A DNA stretch of 64,000 nucleotides from Candidatus Woesebacteria bacterium GW2011_GWB1_39_10 (GCA_000993205.1 LBVU01000001.1:8155-72154); one strand, 5' to 3'; shown: positions 5,679 through 53,750, counted from the stretch's first letter. Notes: generated by a model from the sequence alone, not told the origin. A program made the numbers and translations.

Positions 5679-5722
5679 AAGAAATCACCTCTTTTTTGAG
5701 AAGTTGGATTAGGTGATTTCTT
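5679..5722. other. 12-bp-stem inverted repeat (AAGAAATCACCT / AGGTGATTTCTT) with a 20-nt loop in a divergent/terminal intergenic region
   Basis: Perfect inverted repeat read directly from the sequence. Function unknown. Confidence 0.35.
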
Positions 5723-5864
5723 GAGCATACACCACAGTTTGGAACTCAATTCATGGATGTGGTGTCTGTAGGTTTTGTTAAAGAACAACTAAACCTTATT
5801 AACCAGGGAGGATTAATTTGCTGGAAGATTTTATATCAAGAAGGGGTATTTGTCAAGCCTATAA

Positions 5865-7367
5865 TTATTTAAAAAGTGGTATAAAGCTGTCAGAAAATCC
5901 GACAATACCACTTTGTTCACGGATGGTGGCTCGGCCTCCACCTACGATACGTGTTCTACCAGAAGAATCTTTCCAAATATAGACCTGAACCGGTTCGGGC
6001 AAACCGCAATGGTTAACTATTTTTTGTTCTCTGGGATTGCCGACGCCGCCAAGAACGTCTTGGTAGGCTCCAATACAAGGCGCGGCGACAACCAGCCCTT
6101 TAAAGTTGTTGGTCATTACGACACTGGCCCTTGGATTGGCGGTTAACTGCTCTTTTGTAGGTACTGTACTATTCGAGTCGCAGCTCAAATCATGGAAACG
6201 GACGCGAGTGAGGGGGGAATTTGCGTTATTTGCAGGTATAAAATTGAAAGAGTCCTCCTGAATCCATAAATCCGGTATATTCAGTAAGTTTCCACCCAGC
6301 TCAAGCCATGGGATTCCGTCTGAACTATTAATAAATGTGTTGGTTATCGGATAAACGAGGTGTTCACAGTTTGTGGCTATAAAGCTTCCGCTTTCTATAA
6401 CTATTGTAGGTAATTCTACACCGTAACGTTCACAGATATTTTTAACGCCTCGCAAAAAGGGAACTAGGAATTCCTGGTGTTTGTATCCGCTATCAATTGA
6501 CGGAAATCCGCCACCGAGATTGAGGTCGGTGAGTGTTGGGTATTTACGCTTTAAAACAGCATATTGTTCGGCAGCGATTAGAGCACTTTTGGCAAAAGCT
6601 TCCGGGTTTACTGCGCTTGCGGCACTGCTCATGGCGTGAAGCATTGTAAATTTGAGATTTGGTGACGCCGCTATTTTAGCTGCCTCGTTTTGGACTCCTT
6701 CCCAATCGAATCCGAATGGAGACACCACACCCGGCAATTGTTTTTTGTCTTCCAAAACGGCAAATTTAGATCTTATACCCACACTCATTCTGCCTTTTCT
6801 GACATTTCGTCTAAAAAAGTCGGACTCACCTTGGACAAGAACGGGTGTAATATCGAGTCCTTTTTCAAATGCCTCAATTATGGTTTCTGCGTAGCCCTTA
6901 TCAAAGCGGTGAACACGCAGTTTTGGGCCATTACAAATTACTTTCTTGTCTTGCGCGATTAGACCTTTGCTTCTCAGCCACATAAAATTATGAAGGCCAA
7001 GTTCACCGCTTGTTTCCATGTGCAGCTCCTTAAGGGCGGCGGCCACAACAGGCGCCTTGAAGTTGGCTTTTTCGGCAAAATGAAATCGGAACTTGTCTTG
7101 AGGGTAACCAGCTACCTCTGCGGCTGTTTTGCAGATTCTTTTTATATCGCGCCCTCTTTTTTCAGGGATGGTGAGATCTGTAATCTGGGTTGGGGCATCG
7201 AATTTTTGGCCATGTTCTTGGTGAATGTCAATTACTCTTAATCCGTGTTCGCGAAAACAAAGATTCCAATCCCTGTCATAGGCAAAAATTTCCCAGACAG
7301 CAGGGTTTTTAAGTGTTTCTCTGAGTAATGTTTCTGCTGTTGTTTGACCGATTGTTCTTTCCCACAT
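5865..7367 (-). CDS. PLP-dependent decarboxylase, Orn/DAP/Arg decarboxylase fold (SpeA-like arginine decarboxylase candidate)
   Basis: 500 aa. Motifs ESGSFIATNCEHLVYPI and a C-terminal beta-domain CGLPEP... are typical of fold-III decarboxylases. Confidence 0.6.
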   Translation of the reverse strand: MWERTIGQTTAETLLRETLKNPAVWEIFAYDRDWNLCFREHGLRVIDIHQEHGQKFDAPTQITDLTIPEKRGRDIKRICKTAAEVAGYPQDKFRFHFAEKANFKAPVVAAALKELHMETSGELGLHNFMWLRSKGLIAQDKKVICNGPKLRVHRFDKGYAETIIEAFEKGLDITPVLVQGESDFFRRNVRKGRMSVGIRSKFAVLEDKKQLPGVVSPFGFDWEGVQNEAAKIAASPNLKFTMLHAMSSAASAVNPEAFAKSALIAAEQYAVLKRKYPTLTDLNLGGGFPSIDSGYKHQEFLVPFLRGVKNICERYGVELPTIVIESGSFIATNCEHLVYPITNTFINSSDGIPWLELGGNLLNIPDLWIQEDSFNFIPANNANSPLTRVRFHDLSCDSNSTVPTKEQLTANPRASVVMTNNFKGLVVAAPCIGAYQDVLGGVGNPREQKIVNHCGLPEPVQVYIWKDSSGRTRIVGGGRATIREQSGIVGFSDSFIPLFK

Positions 7368-7370
7368 ATG

Positions 7371-8081
7371 TTATTTGTCTTTTCCGGCGATATCTTTGGC
7401 CTTTTGGACCAAGGGGTTGTTGTCATCTAAGCCAAGCTTTTCTGCCTCAGAAAGCCACTCAGTTAGATGTCTTTCGATTATTTTTTCTTGGACAATCTGG
7501 GTAACGCGTTTGACTTTGAAAACCATGCTGTCACGGCTACCACCAAACCCCATAGGAGCGGTTTCGTCCAAGGTGTCGCTATCGGCACCACCTTGCCATT
7601 TAGCGTAATAACTTTGCAGAGCGTTAAGTCTATAAAGAAGTCTTTGATCGGCGGACAGACTATCCCAACCCGGAATCGACTCTTCGTTTAACTGCGCTAT
7701 TGCTCCCTTTTCAACAAAAACATCTATTGTCTCAAGTGTCTCTGGAGACACGGGGCTTGCTTCTGGGAAAACTGGTTTGACGTTGGGGAAGAGTAGTCCA
7801 ATGGTCTTTGAGGCTGCTGCGCCAAGTTCTTTCAATCTCCCGCGAAGTCTATTTTGGGATTCTTCATCCATGAGCCCGACTGCTGGACCTCCGCTTAGAC
7901 TTTGTATCTCAGCATTAATCATCCCATACCTTGCAAGATAAAAAGGTCTGGGTTGTTCACCCGAAAACGTCGGAAAAGCTTCGACTGTTAGGGCCTCCCA
8001 GTTTCCACTTTCGACAGCAGCTTTTAAGGCCTCTTGTTCCGGCACAAGCCCGACTTTGGCTGCGGACATCTCAGTTATCAT
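7371..8081 (-). CDS. hypothetical protein, probably co-transcribed upstream of the decarboxylase
   Basis: ORF ends 3 nt before the decarboxylase start. No family recognised. Confidence 0.45.
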   Translation of the reverse strand: MITEMSAAKVGLVPEQEALKAAVESGNWEALTVEAFPTFSGEQPRPFYLARYGMINAEIQSLSGGPAVGLMDEESQNRLRGRLKELGAAASKTIGLLFPNVKPVFPEASPVSPETLETIDVFVEKGAIAQLNEESIPGWDSLSADQRLLYRLNALQSYYAKWQGGADSDTLDETAPMGFGGSRDSMVFKVKRVTQIVQEKIIERHLTEWLSEAEKLGLDDNNPLVQKAKDIAGKDK

Positions 8082-17384: not shown

Positions 17385-18506
17385 ATGGTGAAAGTGGGCA
17401 TAAATGGTTTTGGTCGAATAGGTAGACTCGCTTTTAGAATCGGAGTTCTAAAGCATTCCGATGAAATTGAGTTTGGGGCAATTAACACTCCGGGGTCTAT
17501 GAATACGGCAAGTTGGGCACATCTTACGAATTTTGATACGATGTACAGAGAATTTCAGTACAAAGTACAAAGTACAGAGTACACCCCACTTCGCCAAGGC
17601 TCCGAGGGGCAAGGAGATCCGTTGATAGGTTATCTAATGGTGTCAGAAAAAAACCTAAAGGTGCCCGTTTTAGCACAGAAAGATCCCTCCTTGATTCCAT
17701 GGAGCAAATACGGAGTTGATGTGGTAATTGAAGCCACTGGGCACTTTATTGATGAAGAAGGTGCTAAAAAGCATGCAGTGGGAGGAGCTAAGCGAGTTGT
17801 GATTTCGGCTCCGGCCAAAGGGGGTAACGTCGGAACTTATGTTTTAGGAGTAAACGAAATGGACGGAAAGGATCCGGAGGGGATGGTAATAAGTAACGCT
17901 AGCTGTACAACAAATTGTGTTGCTCCGGTTGCCGCGGTTATGCAGGCAAAATTTGGAATTGAAAAGGCGATGATGACAACGATTCATAGTTATACGGACG
18001 ATCAAGTTTTGCAGGATAGCAGCCATAAAGATTTGAGAAGGGCGCGTGCGGCTGGGCAAAATATTATTCCAACAACAACAGGGGCTATAGTTGCAACTAC
18101 AGAAACGATACCGGAGCTCAAAGGACTTTTTGATGGTATGAGTTTAAGGGTCCCGACGACCACGGGGTCAATTACAGACTTTACATTTATTTTGAAAAGA
18201 AATGTAACTAAAGAAGAAGTAAATCAGGCATTTAAGGACGCCATAAATAACCCCATATACAAGGGTATATTGGCAGTTTCTGAGGGATTTTTGGTATCAA
18301 GCGATATCATTGGCAGAAGCGAGTCTGCAATAGTTGACTTGCCATTAACACAGGTGGTTGCGGGAAATATGGTTAAGGTTTTTGCATGGTACGACAACGA
18401 GTGGGGATACGCCAACCGCTTAGTAGAACAGGTGATACGGGTAGGAAGAACCCTGGAAGGAAACTCTGTGCCAACAGATCCGATTACACTTTCTTTTTCA
18501 AAATAA
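17385..18506 (+). CDS. gap: glyceraldehyde-3-phosphate dehydrogenase with an in-frame insertion of about 15 aa in the N-terminal domain
   Basis: INGFGRIGR and SNASCTTNC motifs. The extra segment QYKVQSTEYTPLRQGSEGQGD is encoded by repeat DNA. Confidence 0.85.
   Translation: MVKVGINGFGRIGRLAFRIGVLKHSDEIEFGAINTPGSMNTASWAHLTNFDTMYREFQYKVQSTEYTPLRQGSEGQGDPLIGYLMVSEKNLKVPVLAQKDPSLIPWSKYGVDVVIEATGHFIDEEGAKKHAVGGAKRVVISAPAKGGNVGTYVLGVNEMDGKDPEGMVISNASCTTNCVAPVAAVMQAKFGIEKAMMTTIHSYTDDQVLQDSSHKDLRRARAAGQNIIPTTTGAIVATTETIPELKGLFDGMSLRVPTTTGSITDFTFILKRNVTKEEVNQAFKDAINNPIYKGILAVSEGFLVSSDIIGRSESAIVDLPLTQVVAGNMVKVFAWYDNEWGYANRLVEQVIRVGRTLEGNSVPTDPITLSFSK
17557..17584 (+). repeat. tandem heptamer array (AGTACAR)x4 inside gap
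   Basis: agtacaa agtacaa agtacag agtacac, read directly from the sequence. Confidence 0.8.
17584..17610 (+). repeat. GC-rich 25-nt element, copy 1 (CCCACTTCGCCAAGGCTCCGAGGGG), inside gap
   Basis: Near-identical copies at 58004-58028 and 62047-62072. Confidence 0.8.
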
Positions 18507-22587: not shown

Positions 22588-23400
22588 CTAAGGGCAAGGA
22601 GCAAATTCACAATTTGGTCCGGTTCTACCTACATAACTTCCATCAGGGCAAAGTTTTGCTTCTTTTGTGCAAGCAATGGGTTTGGCTGATGGCGAGGCTA
22701 CTGGATTAATGAATTTGAAAGTAGAAAGGATTTGATCAAAAATTTCAAGATCGTTCTGACCCTCGCTGTTAATGTAGATGTTATATATCAAACCATCCTT
22801 GTGTCTAAAAACAAAATTTGTGCCGCTTACAACATTCGAATACTTAGTTTTATAACCACTTATACCATTAATGGTAACTGGTGTTTGTTTGATGATTTTC
22901 GATTCAGTAAGACTGTTGAAGTTTTGCGGTTCTGTCGGAATTTCTCGCACTTCAATACCACCGATTCCAGATTTGGAATCGGCATTTAATCCAAAGAGGG
23001 TGTTGGCACTTGCACTTTGACTAACAACAGCTGACCAATCAGATGGATATTTGAATTGATATTTATAGGTTGGATGTGTATATGTTTTCCAATTTGCAGT
23101 TGGATCCGCCGTCGCTAAAGCTGTGGCGGACGAAGTCGGTGTCGGAGCTACTTGGTAGTTAGCAAGCATTTTCTTTAACTGTTGATTTTGGTAATACAGG
23201 AAGCCAACAGCAGAGAGAGATAAAAGGACAAACACAGCCATGCTTATTACAGTAATATTGTGTGAGCCATTTGTAATTTGTGATTTGTCATTTGGAATTT
23301 GGTCTAGAATTGGTACTTGTGGATCCATATCCAAAGTATACAACATGCCGTTGAACTCCCCAACAGTTAACTGATAGACTGGAATATATATAAATATCAT
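22588..23400 (-). CDS. membrane-anchored hypothetical protein (true start probably the internal Met near 23346)
   Basis: TM helix ISMAVFVLLSLSAVGFLYY. A C-terminal Cys pair. Confidence 0.45.
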   Translation of the reverse strand: MIFIYIPVYQLTVGEFNGMLYTLDMDPQVPILDQIPNDKSQITNGSHNITVISMAVFVLLSLSAVGFLYYQNQQLKKMLANYQVAPTPTSSATALATADPTANWKTYTHPTYKYQFKYPSDWSAVVSQSASANTLFGLNADSKSGIGGIEVREIPTEPQNFNSLTESKIIKQTPVTINGISGYKTKYSNVVSGTNFVFRHKDGLIYNIYINSEGQNDLEIFDQILSTFKFINPVASPSAKPIACTKEAKLCPDGSYVGRTGPNCEFAPCP

Positions 23401-33402: not shown

Positions 33403-33470
33403 CTCGATACTAAGATATTGAGTGGGCGTGACTTTTTTCCAGGATCCTAGTATCATAGTATCATAGTATC
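33390..33470. repeat. GATACTA-type tandem repeats plus a (TAGTATCA)x3 octamer array
   Basis: agatactaagtgactcgatactaag ... tagtatcatagtatcatagtatcc. Confidence 0.7.
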
Positions 33471-38746: not shown

Positions 38747-38768
38747 AAGCATTCTGAATATGAACTCA
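38744..38768. terminator. perfect palindrome TTCAGAATGCT-GAA-AGCATTCTGAA overlapping the nrdJ stop codon, followed by an imperfect long inverted repeat (38772-38855)
   Basis: Read directly from the sequence. No clear T-run. Confidence 0.35.
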
Positions 38769-38861
38769 AATCTAATATCTCAAATCTCAAAACTGTTCTG
38801 GATTTTAAATTTTAGATATAGATTTGAATTTTGATATTTGAGTTTTGAGTTATAATACTTC

Positions 38862-39431
38862 ATGTCAATTTACACAAAAACAGGAGATGAAGGAACTACA
38901 AAGGTTTTTGATAAAAAATCCGGTCAACTCGTTGGCATACGTAAAGATTCTTGTACGATCGCAGCGATTGGCGCCATTGACGAACTGAATTCTTTTTTGG
39001 GAATAATAAAAGCAGAGATATTAGGATATAAAGATACTAAGATATTAAGTGAGAAAAAAACTGCAATAAAAATAGAAGAAATACAGGGGAATCTTTTTAC
39101 GATAAATTCAATTCTTGCCGGGGCAAACCTGAGGTTTTCTAAAACAAAAACTAAAAAACTGGAAAAAGAGATTGATAAATGGGAGGGAGAGTTGCCCGTC
39201 CAAAAAAACTTCATTTTTTACGGGGGAACTCCAAGAGCTTCACAGCTCTTTTATGCGCGTGCCATCTGTCGCCGTGCTGAGCGTGCTCTGGTAGTACAGA
39301 GTACAGAGTACAAAGTACCTAGCGAGTTAATGATGTATATAAATCGCCTGTCTGATTATCTGTTTATGATGGCGAGAAGCGAAAACTTCAAAAATAAAGT
39401 TAAAGAAAATTTTTGGAAAAGTTCAAAATGA
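38862..39431 (+). CDS. pduO: ATP:cob(I)alamin adenosyltransferase, PduO-type, with an in-frame repeat insertion
   Basis: YTKTGDEGTT motif. The QSTEYKV segment is encoded by a heptamer array. Confidence 0.75.
   Translation: MSIYTKTGDEGTTKVFDKKSGQLVGIRKDSCTIAAIGAIDELNSFLGIIKAEILGYKDTKILSEKKTAIKIEEIQGNLFTINSILAGANLRFSKTKTKKLEKEIDKWEGELPVQKNFIFYGGTPRASQLFYARAICRRAERALVVQSTEYKVPSELMMYINRLSDYLFMMARSENFKNKVKENFWKSSK
39294..39318 (+). repeat. tandem heptamer array (AGTACAR)x3.5 inside pduO
   Basis: agtacag agtacag agtacaa agtacc. Confidence 0.8.
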
Positions 39432-40388: not shown

Positions 40389-40736
40389 ATGGCTGCCACC
40401 CCTGAAACATTAAGACCGGAAGTTCCTCAAGTTGTTGAGCGACAAGAGGAGTTTGTTGTTCCCGAAACTCTTTCGGGGAGTGGGATCAAGGTGGTGCAGA
40501 AAAATTTTAAAGCTCAGGTTAAAAACGATAAAGGAGTTCCCGTCATCCAAACTCCTCCGACCCAAGTAATTACTGTTCAACCTCCTGCAGATACAGTTGC
40601 TCTTACAGCCTGGTCCAAAGGGGACACAACATTGGGAGCGACATGGCTTGGGGTTTTTTGGCTGCGAGTGATCAAAAAGGCATTGCATTTTGGTTGGAAG
40701 GTACTCGGGCTACGCCCGACGGATACTAGTAACTAG
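40389..40736 (+). CDS. small hypothetical protein with a C-terminal hydrophobic helix, upstream of the coupling-protein-like ATPase
   Basis: 115 aa. The last codons plus stop (PTDTSN*) are formed by GATACTAG repeat DNA. Confidence 0.4.
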   Translation: MAATPETLRPEVPQVVERQEEFVVPETLSGSGIKVVQKNFKAQVKNDKGVPVIQTPPTQVITVQPPADTVALTAWSKGDTTLGATWLGVFWLRVIKKALHFGWKVLGLRPTDTSN

Positions 40737-40758
40737 ATACTAGATACTGGCGGCTAGG
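40722..40758. repeat. GATACTA heptamer tandem array (GATACTA GTAACTA GATACTA GATACTG)
   Basis: Read directly from the sequence. Confidence 0.75.
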
Positions 40759-40767
40759 TTTCTAAAT

Positions 40768-43101
40768 ATGTTTATAGATCAGATAAATTTTACCGGCATA
40801 TTGTTTGCAGCGATCGCGATTGCGGTCTTGATTTTAATGCTATCGGCTCTGGGGTATGCAATTTTTATATTTTTTAAGAATAAGAATAGGGAAGAGGCAT
40901 CAATTGATTCGGTTCTTTTGCAGGTGGCGCTTCCCAGGAATAACGAATCAAAAATTGATGTGATGGAGCAGTTGTTTTCATCGCTTTACACCTTAAAGAA
41001 GGGGGGTTGGAAACAGAAGTTTTCAATTCAACCCACAGTTTCTTTTGAAATTGTTGCCAAACAGGAAGATATCAGGTTTTATGTTTGGTGTCCCAAGAAA
41101 ATAAAGGATTTGGTAGAAAAACAAATTAACGGCGCATACGCAGATGCTGAGATAATTGAAATTGACGAATATAACGTTTTTACAAAAGAGGGCAGAGTTG
41201 CTTATAAGTCATTCCAACTGGGTAAAGGCAATTTTTATCCAATCAAAACCTTTAAAGATTTACCCACGGATCCAATGAGCGCCATTACCTCGGCTTTGGC
41301 CAAAATGGGCCCTGAAGAGGCGGCTGTTATCCAGGTGCTACTTTCACCTGCGGAAAGCGATTGGCAAAAAGAAGGGGGAAAGTTTATCTCCGATACTAAA
41401 AAACAGGAAAGCGACCCCGAAAAGGCAAAATATTCTACCCCTGCAAAGACCTTAGAGGCTGTTGAAAATAAAATCGCAAAACCCGGTTTTGAAACCTCTG
41501 TTCGCATTGTGGTCGTTTCGACCGATGAAGATTCAGCAAAAAGCCATGTAACGAATATTGCAGGGGCCTTTGCCCTGTTTGCCGGTGACTTAAACAACCT
41601 AAAAAGCAGAAAAATATGGAGAAAGGGATCGTTTATGGAAGATTTTCTTTACAGGTACCAGCCAATGTTCAATCTTTTTGGGAATCACACATCAATTTTA
41701 AATTCCGAAGAACTTGCCACGATCTTTCATTTTCCCAATAGACAGATAACAACACCTCACATTTTTTGGTTAAATTCAAAAACAGCGCCGGCCCCGGCAC
41801 AAATTCCAACGGAAGGTCTCTATTTGGGGGTAAGCAATTACAGAGGAATAAAGCGTCCGGTATTTTTGGGAAATGAAGACAGAATGAGGCATGTTTACAT
41901 CATCGGAAAAACCGGAACCGGAAAGTCTGAGATTTTGAAGGATATGGTTATTCAGGATATTAAAGAGGGGAAAGGTGTTTGTTTTATGGATCCTCACGGT
42001 GACGCGATTGAAGATATTTTAAAAATGGTTCCGCCGGAGAGGGCCGAAGATGTAATTTATTTTAATCCCAGTGACACTGAAAGGCCTTTAGGGCTTAATC
42101 TTCTTGAAGCCAGAACCGAGGACGAAAAGCATTTTGCCGCAACAGCTGTAATTAACATGATGTACAAACTTTTTGACCCCTACAAAACGGGAATTGTAGG
42201 GCCCAGATTTGAACATGCAGTCAGAAATGCCATGCTTACGGCAATGTACGAGCCGGGAAGCACATTTGTCGAAATTATGAGGATTCTGACCGACTCAAAG
42301 TTTGTTCAAGAGCTTTTGCCAAAAGTTACAGACCCGATTATTAGACGTTATTGGACAGATCAAATTGCCCAGACTTCCGACTTTCATAAATCAGAAGTTT
42401 TGGATTACATTACATCAAAGTTCGGAAGATTCGTTACAAATAAATTAATTAGAAACATAATCGGGCAATCTCAAAGTTCTTTTGATCTACGTAAAGTTAT
42501 GGATGAAGGAAAAATTCTTTTAATTAATTTAGCCAAAGGAAGTTTAGGAGAGGAAAACTCAAACTTTTTAGGACTAATCCTTGTTCCACGCGTTTTAATG
42601 GCTGCCATGAGCAGGGTGGATATGCCGATGGAACAAAGAAAGGACTTTTATTTCTACGTAGACGAGTTTCAGAATTTTGCCACACCAGATTTTGCTGTAA
42701 TTTTGTCAGAGGCCCGTAAGTACCGGCTTGGGCTTTGTGTCGCCAACCAGTTTATAGGGCAAGTTGAAGAAGAGGTTAAAAACGCAGTCTTCGGAAATGT
42801 TGGTACGATTGTCGCTTTCAGAGTTGGTGTAACAGATGCTAATTATTTGGCTCACGAATTTGCTCCCGTTTTCGGTGAAGATGATTTACTTAATGTTGAG
42901 CGTTATCATGCGTTTTGTAAAACAATAGTTAGCAACGAACCCGTTCCTCCTTTTTCAATGGACCTTACAAAAGACATGAGTAAACAAAAAGCCGCCGAGA
43001 GTGAACGAATTGCAGAAATCATAAAAGAAATGAGCCGTCTTAAATATGGACGAGACGAAAAATTAGTGGAAGCGGAGATAACCCGCAGAGCGAAGCTCTG
43101 A
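40768..43101 (+). CDS. FtsK/HerA/TrwB-superfamily P-loop ATPase with an N-terminal TM anchor (type IV secretion coupling-protein-like, TraD/VirD4/TrwB_AAD_bind-like)
   Basis: Walker A YIIGKTGTGKSE and Walker B YFYVDEFQNF. N-terminal TM helix. 777 aa. Confidence 0.55.
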   Translation: MFIDQINFTGILFAAIAIAVLILMLSALGYAIFIFFKNKNREEASIDSVLLQVALPRNNESKIDVMEQLFSSLYTLKKGGWKQKFSIQPTVSFEIVAKQEDIRFYVWCPKKIKDLVEKQINGAYADAEIIEIDEYNVFTKEGRVAYKSFQLGKGNFYPIKTFKDLPTDPMSAITSALAKMGPEEAAVIQVLLSPAESDWQKEGGKFISDTKKQESDPEKAKYSTPAKTLEAVENKIAKPGFETSVRIVVVSTDEDSAKSHVTNIAGAFALFAGDLNNLKSRKIWRKGSFMEDFLYRYQPMFNLFGNHTSILNSEELATIFHFPNRQITTPHIFWLNSKTAPAPAQIPTEGLYLGVSNYRGIKRPVFLGNEDRMRHVYIIGKTGTGKSEILKDMVIQDIKEGKGVCFMDPHGDAIEDILKMVPPERAEDVIYFNPSDTERPLGLNLLEARTEDEKHFAATAVINMMYKLFDPYKTGIVGPRFEHAVRNAMLTAMYEPGSTFVEIMRILTDSKFVQELLPKVTDPIIRRYWTDQIAQTSDFHKSEVLDYITSKFGRFVTNKLIRNIIGQSQSSFDLRKVMDEGKILLINLAKGSLGEENSNFLGLILVPRVLMAAMSRVDMPMEQRKDFYFYVDEFQNFATPDFAVILSEARKYRLGLCVANQFIGQVEEEVKNAVFGNVGTIVAFRVGVTDANYLAHEFAPVFGEDDLLNVERYHAFCKTIVSNEPVPPFSMDLTKDMSKQKAAESERIAEIIKEMSRLKYGRDEKLVEAEITRRAKL

Positions 43102-43190
43102 CGGGGGAGACTAGAGCCTAGATACTTAGATACTGGCAACTTCACTACTTGAGTTTTTCCTTTTAATATCCTAGTATCGGGTATCTAATC
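43100..43190. repeat. TAGATACT repeats (CCTAGATACTTAGATACTGGC ... CCTAGTATCGGGTATC)
   Basis: Shares TAGATACT(T)AGATACTGGC with 40735-40755. Confidence 0.65.
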
Positions 43191-43192
43191 AT

Positions 43193-44056
43193 ATGAATAT
43201 CGGTGTTATTGGCTACGGTTTTGTTGGGCGGGCTACAGGAGAAGGTTTTGTGTCAAATCCAAAAAACAAGGTTTTTTGGTATGACAAATTCAAGGAATCT
43301 CCAAATACGCTGGAGGAGGTTGTAAAGAAGTCAGACTTCGTTTTTGTCTGTGTTCCAACCCCGATATTTGAAGATTACTCCGGAATGGACATGGGTATAG
43401 TTATTGGTGTGGTTGACCAAGTCGCGGAAATTTTGTCCTCCTCCGCTAAAGCTACGGAGGATAAAGTTTTAATTATCAAATCTACATCACTGCCTGGTAC
43501 AGCAAAGAAATTGGCCATCAAGTATCCAAAGATCAACTTTATTATGAATCCGGAGTTTCTTACTCAAAAAAATGCAAACCATGATTTTCTTAATCCTTCA
43601 CGAACCGTGATCGGGGCAGAATCAAAAGATGTTGCCTTAAAAGTAATAAAAATTTATAAAACGATCCTTTCAAAGAATCAGCCATACGTTGTTACTGACA
43701 CCACTAGCGCGGAAGTAATTAAGTATATGAGCAATTTGATGTTGGCCAGTAAAGTCCTTCTTGCCAATGAATTTTACGAATTGTCTAAAAAGGTCGGGGC
43801 AAATTATTTGGATGTTCAAAAAGCGGTCGAAAGTGATCCAAGAATTGGCACACACCTCGGGGTTCCCGGGCCGGATGGCGATATGGGATTCGGGGGAGCG
43901 TGTTTCCCCAAAGACATGGTTGGCATACTCGGATTGGCTAAAAAACTCAAACTGGATGTTTCCGCTCTCGAAGCCATTTGGAAGAAAAATCTCAAAGTTA
44001 GGAAACACAGAGATTGGGAAGAAATGCCACAGGCTTTTAAGAAAGATACTAAGTGA
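43193..44056 (+). CDS. UDP-glucose/GDP-mannose 6-dehydrogenase-family protein (short form lacking the C-terminal nucleotide-sugar-binding domain)
   Basis: N-terminal GYGFVGR Rossmann motif. Catalytic Cys motif GFGGACFPKD. Terminal codons KDTK* come from repeat DNA. Confidence 0.65.
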   Translation: MNIGVIGYGFVGRATGEGFVSNPKNKVFWYDKFKESPNTLEEVVKKSDFVFVCVPTPIFEDYSGMDMGIVIGVVDQVAEILSSSAKATEDKVLIIKSTSLPGTAKKLAIKYPKINFIMNPEFLTQKNANHDFLNPSRTVIGAESKDVALKVIKIYKTILSKNQPYVVTDTTSAEVIKYMSNLMLASKVLLANEFYELSKKVGANYLDVQKAVESDPRIGTHLGVPGPDGDMGFGGACFPKDMVGILGLAKKLKLDVSALEAIWKKNLKVRKHRDWEEMPQAFKKDTK

Positions 44057-44095
44057 TTAGATACTAAGATACTAAGTAGGGATACAAAGCAGCTT
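44040..44095. repeat. GATACTAAG(T) tandem repeats
   Basis: agatactaagtgattagatactaagatactaagtaggg. Homologous to 33397-33425. Confidence 0.7.
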
Positions 44096-50264: not shown

Positions 50265-50308
50265 TAATAAGCTTTATGCTTTATGCTATATGGTGGTAAA
50301 ATAGCTTC

Positions 50309-51244
50309 ATGTCTTCTAAATTGGTAATCATCGATGGGAATGCCATAATGCATCGGGCGTTTCATGCCATTCCCCCCTTGACCACCCCAAAAGGGGAACC
50401 TATAAACGCGGTTTACGGTCTTACCTCTATGCTTCTTAAGGTAATCGGAGAAATTAAACCGACACATTTTGCCGTGGCATTTGACAGAAAAGAGCCGACT
50501 TTTAGACAAAAAGAATTACCCACATACCAAGCCCAGCGTCCGCCAATGGCCAGTGAACTCTCTTGCCAGTTTGAAAAAGCCAGAGAATTCTTAACTGCAG
50601 CCGGAATTCCTGTTTATTCAAAAGCGGGGTTTGAAGCGGATGATGTGATTGGTACGCTTGCTGAGCAAGCGACCAAAAATCCGAAATCCGAAATCCGAAA
50701 TCCGAAATTTGACGGAGTTGTGATAGTGACCGGAGACAGAGATCAATTACAACTTATAGATGACAAACTTAATATAAAACTTTACATGCCGGTTGCAGGA
50801 ATATTGAATGCAAAGTTATATGGAGAGGTGGATACGATTGAGAGAATGGGGGTTCCACCAACTCAAATTGTTGACCTCAAGGCGCTGACGGGAGATACCT
50901 CCGATAATTATTTTGGAGTTCCTGGTATTGGGCCAAAAACAGCGATCAATCTGTTACAGTGTTCTAGAACAATAGAACAGATATATAAGGATTTGGACAA
51001 ATTGCCTGGTAAATTGAGAGAGAAACTTGAGAAAGGGAAGAAGTCGGCTGATCAATCTTATTTCTTGGCGACGATAGATCGAAATGTTCCAATAGATATT
51101 GATTTCGAAGGAATGGGAAAGTGGAACATCGCCGGACAAAACGTATTAAACTTATTTGAAGAATTCGGATTTAAAACACTGACTAAAAGAATTCAAGACG
51201 TCGGACGCAAAATTGAAGAGGAAAAACAAGGGTCATTATTCTGA
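50309..51244 (+). CDS. 5'-3' exonuclease (stand-alone Pol I N-terminal / FEN-like domain) with an in-frame heptamer-repeat insertion
   Basis: VIIDGNAIMHRAFHA...INAVYG. The KNPKSEIRNPKF segment is encoded by (AAATCCG)x4. Confidence 0.75.
   Translation: MSSKLVIIDGNAIMHRAFHAIPPLTTPKGEPINAVYGLTSMLLKVIGEIKPTHFAVAFDRKEPTFRQKELPTYQAQRPPMASELSCQFEKAREFLTAAGIPVYSKAGFEADDVIGTLAEQATKNPKSEIRNPKFDGVVIVTGDRDQLQLIDDKLNIKLYMPVAGILNAKLYGEVDTIERMGVPPTQIVDLKALTGDTSDNYFGVPGIGPKTAINLLQCSRTIEQIYKDLDKLPGKLREKLEKGKKSADQSYFLATIDRNVPIDIDFEGMGKWNIAGQNVLNLFEEFGFKTLTKRIQDVGRKIEEEKQGSLF
50677..50708 (+). repeat. tandem heptamer array (AAATCCG)x4 inside the 5'-3' exonuclease gene
   Basis: aaatccg aaatccg aaatccg aaatccg aaat. 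Confidence 0.85.
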
Positions 51245-51249
51245 CTAAA

Positions 51250-51285
51250 ATACTTCAATACTATATAGTATTGAAGTGATGTAAT
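51250..51285. repeat. 26-nt perfect palindrome ACTTCAATACTATATAGTATTGAAGT (terminator-like); partial copy at 11040-11070
   Basis: Read directly. Shares ACTATATAGTATTGAAGT with 11048-11068. Confidence 0.6.
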
Positions 51286-51289
51286 AGAA

Positions 51290-52435
51290 ATGAAGAAATT
51301 AAAAATTGCCATAGTACATGATTATTTAAAAGAATATGGTGGGGCGGAAAGGGTAGTGGAGGCCATGCTTGAAATTTGGCCCGATGCCCCAGTTTATACG
51401 ACGGTTTTTTTGCCGGAATTTTTAGGTCCGCATAGAACGCGTGTCGAGAAATGGGATATAAGAACTTCTTTTTTGCAAAAAATCCCATTTAACGCAAAGC
51501 TTATAAGTTTGTTTAGGTTTATAGCTCCGTTTGTATTCTCGACGATGGATTTAACAAAGTATGACGTTGTGGTAGTGTCATCTGCCGGCACGTACACAAG
51601 CCCAAATTTTATACGAATGAATAAAAAAAGTACTCTAGTGTGTTATTATCATACACCTCCTAGATATCTGTACGGCTATCCTGTTGCAAATGACTGGAGA
51701 AATAATATTTTCCGCAGGATGTTATTAGCACTGGGTCAGATCCCGATGTTCTTTCTAAGGATTCTTGACAAACGCGCTGCACAAATTCCAGACTACGTGT
51801 TAGCTAATTCAAAGGAGGTGGCAGGGAGGATTAGAAGGTTTTATAACAGAGAAGCTACAGTAATTTATCCACCTGTGGAGATACCCAAACTCGAAATCCG
51901 AAACTCGAAATCCGAAACTCGAAACTACTACCTAATTGGGAGCAGGGTATCACGCCACAAAGGACACGATATTGCAATAAAAGCTTTTACAAAATTAGGT
52001 TATAAACTAAATGTTTTTGGTGGAACTTTTGCTTCGTATGGTTTGGACCAATTTAAAAAAGATGCCGGTGCAAATATTAAATTTTTGGGCGAAGTGACGG
52101 AAGACGAAAAATTGGATTTAATGAAAAATGCAAAAGCTTTTATTTATCCATCAGAACATGAGGATTTTGGAATCGTCCCTGTAGAAACTATGGCAGCAGG
52201 GACTCCCGTAATCGCATTAGCCCAAGGCGGCCCGCTCGAAACTATTATTGACGGCAAGACTGGGGTGTTTTTTAAAGAAAGGACGATTGAAAGTTTGATT
52301 GCTGCTGTTAAAAAATCTGAGAAGATGAAATTTAAATCTGAAGACTGTGTCTCTCAAGCAAAAAAATTTAGCAAGGAAAGATTTAAACGCGAAATGCTAC
52401 AATTTGTTGACACCCATGCCCAAAACGAAAAATAG
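51290..52435 (+). CDS. glycosyltransferase family 4 with an in-frame heptamer-repeat insertion
   Basis: C-terminal GT-B motifs (EDFGIVPVETMAAGTPVI). The LEIRNSKSETRN segment is encoded by a GAAAYYC array. Confidence 0.7.
   Translation: MKKLKIAIVHDYLKEYGGAERVVEAMLEIWPDAPVYTTVFLPEFLGPHRTRVEKWDIRTSFLQKIPFNAKLISLFRFIAPFVFSTMDLTKYDVVVVSSAGTYTSPNFIRMNKKSTLVCYYHTPPRYLYGYPVANDWRNNIFRRMLLALGQIPMFFLRILDKRAAQIPDYVLANSKEVAGRIRRFYNREATVIYPPVEIPKLEIRNSKSETRNYYLIGSRVSRHKGHDIAIKAFTKLGYKLNVFGGTFASYGLDQFKKDAGANIKFLGEVTEDEKLDLMKNAKAFIYPSEHEDFGIVPVETMAAGTPVIALAQGGPLETIIDGKTGVFFKERTIESLIAAVKKSEKMKFKSEDCVSQAKKFSKERFKREMLQFVDTHAQNEK
51887..51926 (+). repeat. tandem heptamer array (CGAAATC / CGAAACT) x about 5.5 inside the GT4 gene
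   Basis: aaactcgaaatccgaaactcgaaatccgaaactcgaaact. Confidence 0.85.
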
Positions 52436-52880
52436 GCTTTTTAGGTTGGTACAACTCCAGGCAATTGCTTTCGTAGTAGTTTACTTTCTTATTTCCAACT
52501 TGTTTGTTGTTAAATTTATTACCAATCCAAATATTTATATTTCTTTTTTCTCTTCATTAATTTTTGGTTCTGTTTCTGTGTTTGCTTTCCTATATCTTTT
52601 TTCTCATCAGAATTTCCTTCCGTTTTTTAAGAACCTACAAGGCAGTCAAGACAAAAAGGAAAAAAAGTATTTAAAAAGTTATATAAAATATGGAAAATTT
52701 TTAGCTTGCATAATTGTAGGAATATTGGGTGGGCCGATATTTTTGGCTTTAACAATTAGATTCTTGTTCCCGCGATCAAAGAATAAATATTTGATAGGTT
52801 TTGTTTCTACTTTTGTATCTACAGTAATAGTAATATTTTTTGGAAAGAGTATTTTGGAGTTAATTAGATTTAAATTTTAA
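52416..52880 (+). CDS. small polytopic membrane protein (paralog of 57350-57778)
   Basis: Shares FLY(L/F)FSH...KYGKF...G(I/V)..GP(I/L)...RFL with the other copy. Confidence 0.4.
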   Translation: MPKTKNRLFRLVQLQAIAFVVVYFLISNLFVVKFITNPNIYISFFSSLIFGSVSVFAFLYLFSHQNFLPFFKNLQGSQDKKEKKYLKSYIKYGKFLACIIVGILGGPIFLALTIRFLFPRSKNKYLIGFVSTFVSTVIVIFFGKSILELIRFKF

Positions 52881-52886
52881 AAAACA

Positions 52887-53750
52887 ATGCCGGAATTACC
52901 AGAGGTCGAGTCAATGAAACTTCAGCTTGCAAAGTTCCTTGTCGGGCACAAGATACTTGGCGTAGAAATTCGAAATCCGAAATACGAAATTCGAAAAGAT
53001 ATCATAGGAGGGAAGATAACAGGAATCAGAAGATTTGGGAAAGTTTCTGTGATAGATCTTGATAATGGTTATTCAATCCTTACACACGTAAAACTTACTG
53101 GCCAATATATTTATCGTGGTCCAAATTTACCTAAACCCTATACGCTATCCGCTAAAGTTATCGGAGGTATCCCCGGGCCACATACTTTGGTAATTTTCAA
53201 ATTAGATCACGATGGTGTTTTGTATTACAACGATGTTCGTCGTTTTGGGTGGATAAAAATTGTGGATAGCGGACAGGTGATAGCGGATAGGTTTATAGAT
53301 AAACTGGGACCAGAGCCCTTCGGCAAGCCTCAGGGTAAACCCTCTCTTCTAACCTTGGATTTGTTCAAACAAATATTATCCAAAACTTCCCGTCCAATTA
53401 AAATCGTTCTTATGGACCAGACGAAAGTGGGGGGGGTGGGGAATATTTATGCAAACGATGCGCTTTGGCTTGCCAAAATTAATCCAAAGCGAAAAGCGAA
53501 TAGTGTAGAAGGAAAAGAGGCTAAAGAATTATATGAAGCAATATTAACTGTATTAAGAGAAGGGTTAAAATACGGAGGGGCAAGTGAGCTTGCATTTGTG
53601 ACGCCGGATGGGAAAGAGGGAAAATATCAAAATCATACGTTGGCTTATGGACATGAAGGAGAACTTTGCGGCCGTTGTCATAAGGCTAAATTTATTAAAT
53701 ATTTTCTCGGCGGGCGCGGGACTTATGTTTGCCCAAACTGTCAGAAATAG
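52887..53750 (+). CDS. formamidopyrimidine-DNA glycosylase / endonuclease VIII family (Fpg/Nei) with an in-frame heptamer-repeat insertion
   Basis: N-terminal MPELPEVE. C-terminal zinc finger CGRCH...CPNCQ. The EIRNPKYEIRKD segment comes from a GAAAYYC array. Confidence 0.75.
   Translation: MPELPEVESMKLQLAKFLVGHKILGVEIRNPKYEIRKDIIGGKITGIRRFGKVSVIDLDNGYSILTHVKLTGQYIYRGPNLPKPYTLSAKVIGGIPGPHTLVIFKLDHDGVLYYNDVRRFGWIKIVDSGQVIADRFIDKLGPEPFGKPQGKPSLLTLDLFKQILSKTSRPIKIVLMDQTKVGGVGNIYANDALWLAKINPKRKANSVEGKEAKELYEAILTVLREGLKYGGASELAFVTPDGKEGKYQNHTLAYGHEGELCGRCHKAKFIKYFLGGRGTYVCPNCQK
52965..52998 (+). repeat. tandem heptamer array (GAAATYC)x about 5 inside the fpg gene
   Basis: gaaattc gaaatcc gaaatac gaaattc gaaaag. 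Confidence 0.85.

Follow-up and report, generated by a model that had tools for sequence, protein, structure and literature searches.

An excess of 7-nucleotide (nt) tandem repeats in bacterial genomes has been known since 1990 and 2007, without a proven mechanism or function. Here we describe three arrays of such repeats, built on variants of the unit GAAAYYC and translated within neighbouring genes for a 5'-3' exonuclease, a GT4 glycosyltransferase and Fpg (MutM), in a 64-kb stretch of groundwater-derived DNA from Candidatus Woesebacteria (Microgenomates, candidate phyla radiation (CPR)); we refer to this whole stretch as the window. We consider it fairly probable that the three arrays are ordinary members of a genome-wide heptanucleotide-repeat class that has been filtered by selection.

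In many bacterial genomes, no class of long simple sequence repeats (SSRs) is more over-represented than heptanucleotide repeats; as a cause, slippage favoured by a 7-nt contact of the polymerase has been proposed (PMC4692102, PMC4679880). The same literature covers the three heptamers (STRR) reported in Calothrix, the STRR of the cyanobacteria Calothrix and Nostoc, and the over-represented 7-nt long SSRs of Mrazek et al. 2007 (PMC4692102, PMC4679880). GGGAATC repeats of Xanthomonas and GGGGAYT repeats of Nostoc prefer four units, are fewer in coding sequence, lie near stop codons and form inverted pairs, and for the TAACTGA repeats of Beggiatoaceae translation has been examined in either orientation (PMC4692102, PMC4679880). 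Two further systems place repeat DNA inside proteins. Rickettsia palindromic elements (RPEs) are selfish DNA found in-frame within protein-coding genes at fold-compatible sites (PMC10969869), and the tandem repeats within open reading frames (ORFs) of Borgs, which encode amino-acid repeats and disordered regions, have unit lengths that are all divisible by three (PMC9879509). No paper that ties heptamer repeats to Patescibacteria, Microgenomates or Woesebacteria was found in the literature searched.

Three heptamer arrays and a period-7 excess

The host genes all lie on the plus strand: the exonuclease gene (50309-51244, 311 amino acids; Pfam 5_3_exonuc_N and 5_3_exonuc), the GT4 gene (51290-52435, 381 amino acids) and fpg/MutM (52887-53750, 287 amino acids; match to solved Fpg structures, E=6e-45). 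This gene order is kept in Woesebacteria relatives. An entry identical to the GT4 protein is named Candidatus Woesebacteria bacterium GW2011_GWA2_40_7 glycosyl transferase group 1, and contigs encoding the identical protein come from groundwater and other metagenome assemblies. Arrays were called with Tandem Repeats Finder (TRF). The exonuclease array (50677-50708) is (AAATCCG)x4.6 with 100% matches at period 7 and encodes KNPKSEIRNPK(F), residues 123-135. In the GT4 array (51887-51926), AAACTCG and AAATCCG alternate, such that the true period is 14, with 2.7 copies of AAACTCGAAATCCG at 100% matches, and the encoded peptide is KLEIRNSKSETRN; at period 7, TRF reports 5.7 copies with 75% matches. 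The fpg array (52965-52998) reads GAAATTC GAAATCC GAAATAC GAAATTC GAAAAG and encodes EIRNPKYEIRK; TRF calls it at 52965-52996 as (GAAATTC)x4.6, period 7, 88%. Allowing up to two mismatches, GAAATCCGAAATCC matches the window 10 times, always on the plus strand and always inside 50676-52992, whereas 1.15 matches are expected and 10 were reached in none of 100 shuffles.

A reading of this stretch made from the sequence alone (the sequence-only reading) had placed an array in each of these genes. The TRF calls and the match counts confirm the positions, the gene identities hold, the quoted translations (KNPKSEIRNPKF, KLEIRNSKSETRN and VEIRNPKYEIRKD) are correct, and the evidence supports genuine 7-nt-period repeats within coding sequence. 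The shuffles rule out chance or base composition as their origin. An assembly artefact is likewise ruled out, as several assemblers and samples yielded the identical sequence, with uninterrupted reading frames. No known RNA family was detected at the arrays, the Rfam matches on the window being two tRNAs only, and consensus scans for a promoter or terminator role of the three arrays remained at background level. Separately, the exonuclease-GT4 spacer holds a perfect 26-nt palindrome, ACTTCAATACTATATAGTATTGAAGT, at 51252-51277, which the terminator scan flagged on the minus strand.

The three arrays belong to a much larger excess, which we examined over the window and approximately 150 kb of relatives, counting arrays of at least three units at 80% identity or more and comparing them with Markov shuffles (n=20). 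In the window, 14 period-7 arrays were observed against 0.4 expected (shuffle maximum 2), an approximately 35-fold excess. Period 6 gave 10 arrays against 3 expected and periods 8-14 gave 0-2 arrays; no period other than 7 is strongly enriched in the window. At least eight distinct 7-nt units are present, in coding sequence and in spacers, and some recur at separate loci: GAAAYYC at three, AGTACAR at two, and CTCAAAT/ATTTGAG as a pair. Period-7 arrays are also present in the Woesebacteria relatives L010-L020, while among nine unrelated loci (L021-L029) a single A/T-rich run was found in each of two loci and no such array in the other seven. Spacers are enriched, with 4 of 13 arrays in non-ORF sequence, which makes up 8.4% of the window (p=0.019); by raw count, the majority of the window's arrays still lie in coding sequence.

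The sequence-only reading had taken a shared reading frame in three of three genes as a sign of selection on the peptide or of a frame-constrained mechanism. This fails on both counts. Start positions are 2 mod 3 for the exonuclease and GT4 genes but 0 mod 3 for fpg, and a 7-nt array restores its register only every 21 nt, passing through all three codon registers on the way. Because 7 and 3 are coprime, (GAAATCC)n reads as EIRNPKS, KSEIRNP or NPKSEIR depending on the start point, and each is the same cyclic heptapeptide, E-I-R-N-P-K-S. Agreement in frame is therefore automatic and no sign of selection, and frame agreement among heptamer arrays is uninformative in general. Strand is the sole non-trivial property common to the three arrays, and three of three on one strand has a probability of 0.25. 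The antisense reading of the unit, GFRISDF, is also open, the sense peptides being hydrophilic (Kyte-Doolittle -1.9) and the antisense ones not (+0.13). All arrays inside coding sequence in the window lack a stop in all three phases of the sense strand; where a unit does contain a stop, its array is located in a spacer or itself forms the stop codon of an ORF. For annotation, peptides such as EIRNPKS, GFRISDF or VQSTEYK within conserved proteins can be taken as marks of heptamer arrays.

The array sites in relatives and other arrays in the window

The exonuclease has 4728 homologues at E<=1e-30. Its AlphaFold model has a mean predicted local distance difference test score (pLDDT) of 91.6, and residues 123-135 form a coil between helix 110-122 and strand 136-140 with a block pLDDT of 64, the lowest internal confidence of the model; the array is thus predicted to lie in a low-confidence surface loop. 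In 61 of 117 close homologues, this loop, between DDVIGT and VVIVTGDRD, has a basal length of 8 residues (IATKAKED). In the remainder it spans 9-51 residues, and many of the longer loops are 7-periodic (KLKIKNLKSK, EQSTINNQQLT, TVQSTEYK, KNQKSKIKNQ). At the DNA level, the units in the loops of relatives are CAACCTC (L011), AAAAATT (L012), GTAACCC (L013), AGCGATT (L281), AAATKMC-type (L282) and AGTACAR (L284). In L150, an (AAAAATC)4 array begins at the same nucleotide as the (GAAATCC)4 array of the window, and in L010 and L283 inverted array pairs lie within the exonuclease coding sequence. Approximately half of the Woesebacteria exonuclease homologues examined therefore carry an insert at one loop, many of them 7-periodic.

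Small genes of the 23S_rRNA_IVP type (bAvd-like four-helix bundles) were seen in relatives between the exonuclease and GT4 genes or elsewhere (L010 5567-5999; L151 ~5700-6115; L281 ~7150-7640; L284 2864-2922 and 4319-4345). Inverted heptamer arrays, such as (GTAGNAT)3 ... (ATNCTAC)3, lie on either side of them, in a stem-like arrangement with the ORF in the loop. The window has no such cassette, and its exonuclease-GT4 spacer is just 45 nt.

For GT4, the array occupies the loop before the YYLIGSR strand, which has 13 residues in 87 of 118 homologues and 16 residues in 15; the window protein has 16. The 16-residue loops include KYEARNTKHEIRN (P0256) and KFEARSTKSETRE (P0275), which are 7-periodic variants. 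In L281, which encodes P0256, (TACGAAGCACGAAA)x2.7 extends across the same 39 nt as (AAACTCGAAATCCG)x2.7 in the window, a pattern that points either to a single old array evolving in concert or to arrays having arisen more than once at this site. In the structure model, residues 197-212 form a coil before strand 213-218, with pLDDT below 50 at residues 205-208, such that this array too is placed by prediction in a low-confidence surface loop. Lineage-specific GT4 inserts that are not heptameric were also noted, in L017 (VCHPERSEGSLDSSAKPQNDM, at approximately residue 110 of the alignment) and L018 (AEVVHENFRAHNAGNLNLKNKKAVGANVHSENF and ENPSTGSGRQNP).

The fpg array has a different history. We placed it by alignment to solved Fpg, where it aligns with IEATYPRM...QLKKELTG of the Lactococcus protein, and its first EIRNPK lines up position by position with canonical VEVKNRK. 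The canonical segment, SVEVKNRKTFQGDEKKIIGG, has 26 residues between anchors in 88 of 103 homologues. The array type, EIRNPK[YF]EI..K, with 24-25 residues, is found in the window and 15 homologues and replaces that segment: the array takes the place of canonical VEVKNRKTFQGDEKK and adds no length. The insertion into fpg that the sequence-only reading had envisaged is thus not there; native residues have been replaced and the protein is 1-2 residues shorter than its homologues. The canonical fpg DNA of L151 (GAAGTTCGGAATCGAAAAAC) is itself already quasi-periodic.

The fpg array is found near base-for-base in L282, L281 and L013, and as a peptide in approximately 15 homologues. A single origin of the EIRNPK[YF]EI type in one clade was considered and rejected, as the 16 carriers are scattered when the segment is masked. 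One array-type protein, P0143, is 97% identical to the canonical P0164. At the DNA level, these two fpg genes (L279 1542-2387 and L280 4001-4849) show 97-100% identity downstream of codon ~50 but 30-70% upstream, and the diverged upstream part includes the array-versus-canonical segment together with the upstream neighbour genes. This contrast in identity points to a recombination breakpoint at the array segment, and the fpg array is an old allele, apparently moved by recombination. At residues shared with L282, L281 and L013, 10 of 11, 9 of 10 and 8 of 10 codons of the array are identical, respectively, whereas outside the array 42-48% of codons are identical at shared residues (p=0.004, 0.0045 and 0.017, the three comparisons not being independent). 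The conservation at synonymous sites therefore indicates that the periodic DNA has been maintained beyond what the protein requires.

These comparisons bear on a further proposal of the sequence-only reading, that the repeat had recently spread into neighbouring genes. What stands is the clustering of the GAAAYYC arrays (p=0.021 with unit labels permuted among 13 arrays; p=0.004 under uniform placement), a post hoc result that backs local spread weakly. What does not stand is the recency: the fpg, GT4 and exonuclease arrays all have counterparts in relatives, and the age of the fpg and GT4 arrays contradicts local spread.

Other arrays are distributed along the window. A (GCTTTAT)x3.1 array at 50271-50292 (plus strand), with a unit unrelated to GAAAYYC, lies in the 44-nt spacer between ftsH and the exonuclease gene. 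Arrays of the (GCTTTAT/GCCTTAT/GCTATAT)n family lie directly 3' of ftsH in the window and in L284, where members at 2864-2885, 7009-7029 and 7984-8005 recur after several genes, like punctuation at gene ends. A second translated family is AGTACAA/G, read as VQSTEYK: (AGTACAA)x3.9 at 17557-17583 (plus strand) encodes KVQSTEYT in GAPDH (Pfam Gp_dh_N, Gp_dh_C), (AGTACAG)x3.7 at 39293-39318 (plus strand) encodes VVQSTEYKV in a cobalamin adenosyltransferase gene, and the peptide recurs in the exonuclease loop of P0082 (L284 3334-3369). A TACAAAT-like array at 23269-23301 encodes QIPNDKSQITN in a minus-strand gene; on the plus strand it would hold TAA. The spacer between the ribonucleotide reductase and cobalamin adenosyltransferase genes contains the inverted pair (CTCAAAT)n and (ATTTGAG)n at 38765-38851, for which RNA folding predicts a hairpin (-26.2 kcal/mol, z=-3.1). 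A (GATACTA)x3.9 array at 40722-40748 (plus strand), the unit of which contains TAG, spans the stop codon of the ORF at 40389-40736. GATACTA heptamer arrays and octamer arrays (AAGATACT, AGATATTA and ATCATAGT) cluster at 39-44 kb (positions noted: 40722-40748, 43119-43134, 44043-44076, 39016-39049 and 33444-33470). Two arrays of this cluster provide the stop codon of the upstream ORF (DTSN* and KKDTK*), and related octamers, read as DTKILRYKDT, occupy the exonuclease loop of P0001 and P0004.

Origin of the arrays

Any explanation has to account for the existence of the arrays, the period-7 excess, the location of the exonuclease and GT4 arrays in loops, the reuse of those loops in relatives, and the age and constancy of the arrays. 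In the explanation we favour, a mutational process with a preference for a 7-nt step would seed and homogenise arrays genome-wide. Slippage is its presumed generator, the published proposal being slipped-strand mispairing at the replicative polymerase. Within a gene, an array would persist only if its unit is free of stops in the sense direction in any phase, if the overall gain or loss of length is divisible by three, and if the site is tolerant. A persisting array would then be translated into a 7-residue-periodic peptide, here the hydrophilic E-I-R-N-P-K-S, and such peptides are probably near-neutral. Repeated hits on the same loops would reflect how few places are permissive.

Several observations weigh against this explanation. 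The fpg array is conserved at synonymous sites (10/11, 9/10 and 8/10 codons against 42-48% elsewhere), and the fpg and GT4 arrays replace native sequence at near-constant length rather than merely adding to it. Array size is narrow, the same units turn up at loci that are not linked, in other lineages and over a contig GC range of 32-70%, and (GAAATCC)3 is over-represented in viral contigs; the figures for these are given below. In addition, slippage itself was never observed: in eight to nine independently assembled contigs aligned to the window (L001-L009), which are consensus sequences probably from one population (several from Rifle groundwater), the three arrays show no change in copy number and no variant of +/-7 nt. 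Indels between these assemblies and the window lie elsewhere or are N-gaps, and a scaffold gap in L005 covers the repeat-rich spacer at 43077-43142, where that assembly is uninformative. Between lineages, array unit and length do differ.

The main rival is a copy-and-paste process, which we think unlikely but which has the most in its favour among the alternatives. Here a mini-element, its solo arms, or templated repair or gene conversion would write blocks of approximately 30-37 nt, taken from a heptamer array that already exists, into new sites, sometimes as inverted pairs, and local copying would link the GAAAYYC arrays of the three adjacent genes. The recurrence of units fits such a process: AGTACAA is found in GAPDH and the adenosyltransferase gene here and in the exonuclease loop of P0082/L284, and AAGATACT-type octamers in spacers of the window and in the exonuclease loop of P0001/P0004. 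The wider distribution fits it too. At least 120 metagenome contigs contain exact (GAAATCC)3, and among the matches listed we took 80 loci (L030-L109, 448 kb), which span 32-70% GC. In these loci, 218 period-7 arrays have a median length of 34 nt (interquartile 28-37, 95th percentile 42), and many are in inverted pairs. In viral contigs, (GAAATCC)3 occurs 22 times against 3, 4 and 5 times for three composition-matched control units, making it approximately 5 times commoner, and (AGTACAA)3 63 times against 29 for one control. As side observations, contigs with (GAAATCC)3-4 come from soils, sediments and groundwater and nearly always have 4-5 units; the arrays often have an inverted copy 30-250 nt away, and some are in-frame in large ORFs as EIRNPKS or GFRISDF.

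A copy-and-paste process would further accommodate the uniform array size of 4-5 units, the inverted array pairs that flank 23S_rRNA_IVP cassettes (four loci) and occur in the exonuclease coding sequence (L283, L010), the constant-length replacement in fpg and GT4, the synonymous-site conservation in fpg, and the clustering of the three arrays (p=0.02). Against it, that clustering test is post hoc, the three arrays have no inverted partner in the window, and the spacers between inverted arms in the metagenome loci have no common sequence and are unrelated in length. The flanks that were read showed no target-site duplication, no transposase and no conservation, no systematic search having been made. 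Furthermore, different units sit at one nucleotide position, (AAAAATC)4 in L150 and (GAAATCC)4 in the window, which in-situ turnover explains at least equally well. A mobile-element reading as such was rejected on the unrelated arm spacers and the lack of a visible transposase.

A stronger form of this idea is that the arrays of approximately 30-37 nt are the output of active templated write-in and not passive products of slippage, the source being synthesis during repair, gene conversion templated by master arrays, or a very small hairpin element. Taken as a joint claim, we regard this as doubtful. If true, write-in would span many bacterial phyla, use few favoured units such as GAAATCC, be kept at the DNA level, and contribute heavily to insertion and replacement in the loops of CPR housekeeping proteins.

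That the arrays are retained for a function appears improbable to us. The peptide could serve as a short linear motif or as a charged, flexible linker, or the DNA or RNA as a protein-binding, structural or translational-pausing element, and the synonymous conservation of the fpg array over four lineages despite diverged flanks would fit this, as would the hydrophilic character of the sense peptides, which the antisense peptides lack. Orientation offers a further hint. Of the 84 arrays of (GAAATCC)>=3 in the 80 listed metagenome loci, 59 are intergenic or unassigned under conservative gene calls, and among the others sense is commoner than antisense, 17 to 8, but not significantly so (p=0.11). 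The sequence-only reading had itself named a lack of coding bias among copies as evidence against selection on the peptide, and these counts lean that way; orientation as support for peptide selection was accordingly discarded. Inserts occur in conserved motif contexts in both orientations, in sense in GIAMGL...LTDIQG of L103, presumably PNPase-like, and in antisense, as GFRISDF, after KTGTLT in L083, which we take to be P-type-ATPase-like. Functional retention is further disfavoured by the absence of arrays from most homologues of all three enzymes, the different units held by one loop in different lineages, the predicted disorder of the exonuclease and GT4 loops, and the lack of any Rfam family match.

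We give little credence to a slippage-prone contingency switch, in which gain or loss of one 7-nt unit would turn a gene off or on by frameshift, as the sequence-only reading had raised. Since 7 is not a multiple of three, a change of one unit would indeed shift the frame, and heptanucleotide phase variation has been published for Haemophilus HMW1A and Escherichia coli NeuO. However, phase variation is unsupported here because the arrays are identical across the 8-9 assemblies, have only 4-5 units, and are hosted by housekeeping enzymes of DNA repair and the cell envelope rather than by surface or restriction-modification genes; moreover, the arrays stay in-frame across lineages that differ by 25-40% in protein sequence. 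Finally, a coincidence of native codons, in which E-I-R-N written as GAA ATC CGA AAT alone makes 1.7 heptamer units, draws on the alignment of EIRNPK with canonical VEVKNRK in fpg and the quasi-periodic L151 DNA, but as a general explanation it is refuted by 10 GAAATCCGAAATCC matches against 1.15 in shuffles, by the 32-nt perfect repeat of the exonuclease array and by the approximately 35-fold enrichment of period 7, and is highly improbable beyond a native proto-repeat having, at most, seeded the fpg array.

Comparison with known systems

We therefore return to the explanation that we favour, a heptanucleotide-repeat class filtered by selection, and to its closest relations. SSR-based phase-variable contingency loci resemble the three arrays in having a tandem repeat in coding sequence with a unit that is not a multiple of three, but differ in their variable copy number, many units and non-housekeeping hosts. 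Borg repeats are similar in that tandem repeats within ORFs make low-complexity or disordered segments and arise independently in related genomes. Unlike the Borg units, the unit here is 7 (or 14) nt and is not divisible by three, so that frame is kept only through total length. As with RPEs, repeat DNA lies in-frame in unrelated housekeeping genes, in the exonuclease and GT4 at fold-compatible sites. In contrast to RPEs, which are palindromic, approximately 150 bp long and form defined families, the arrays here are 32-40 nt, are not palindromic and lack an inverted partner, and in fpg the array has replaced native sequence instead of being inserted. The RPE resemblance is limited to the inverted-pair inserts of the relatives L283 and L010.

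The closest match is to the bacterial heptanucleotide SSRs and STRR, with which the arrays share tandem 7-nt units, typically in approximately four copies, and a period-7 excess. As in STRR-class repeats, one unit occurs at several loci, spacers are enriched, inverted pairs are formed, and arrays lie just after or across stop codons. The sites with and without arrays in relatives form a natural data set for setting slippage against copy-and-paste models, and heptamer arrays are a plausible source of lineage-specific protein insertions in these enzymes. In contrast to the known heptanucleotide SSRs, the units here are A-rich and allow no G-quadruplex, yet approximately four units are preferred. 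This work adds a CPR lineage, Woesebacteria, to the hosts of such repeats, and it shows that heptamer arrays are routinely translated inside conserved enzymes: many copies here, unlike those described before, are read as part of housekeeping proteins, at the same protein loops across lineages.

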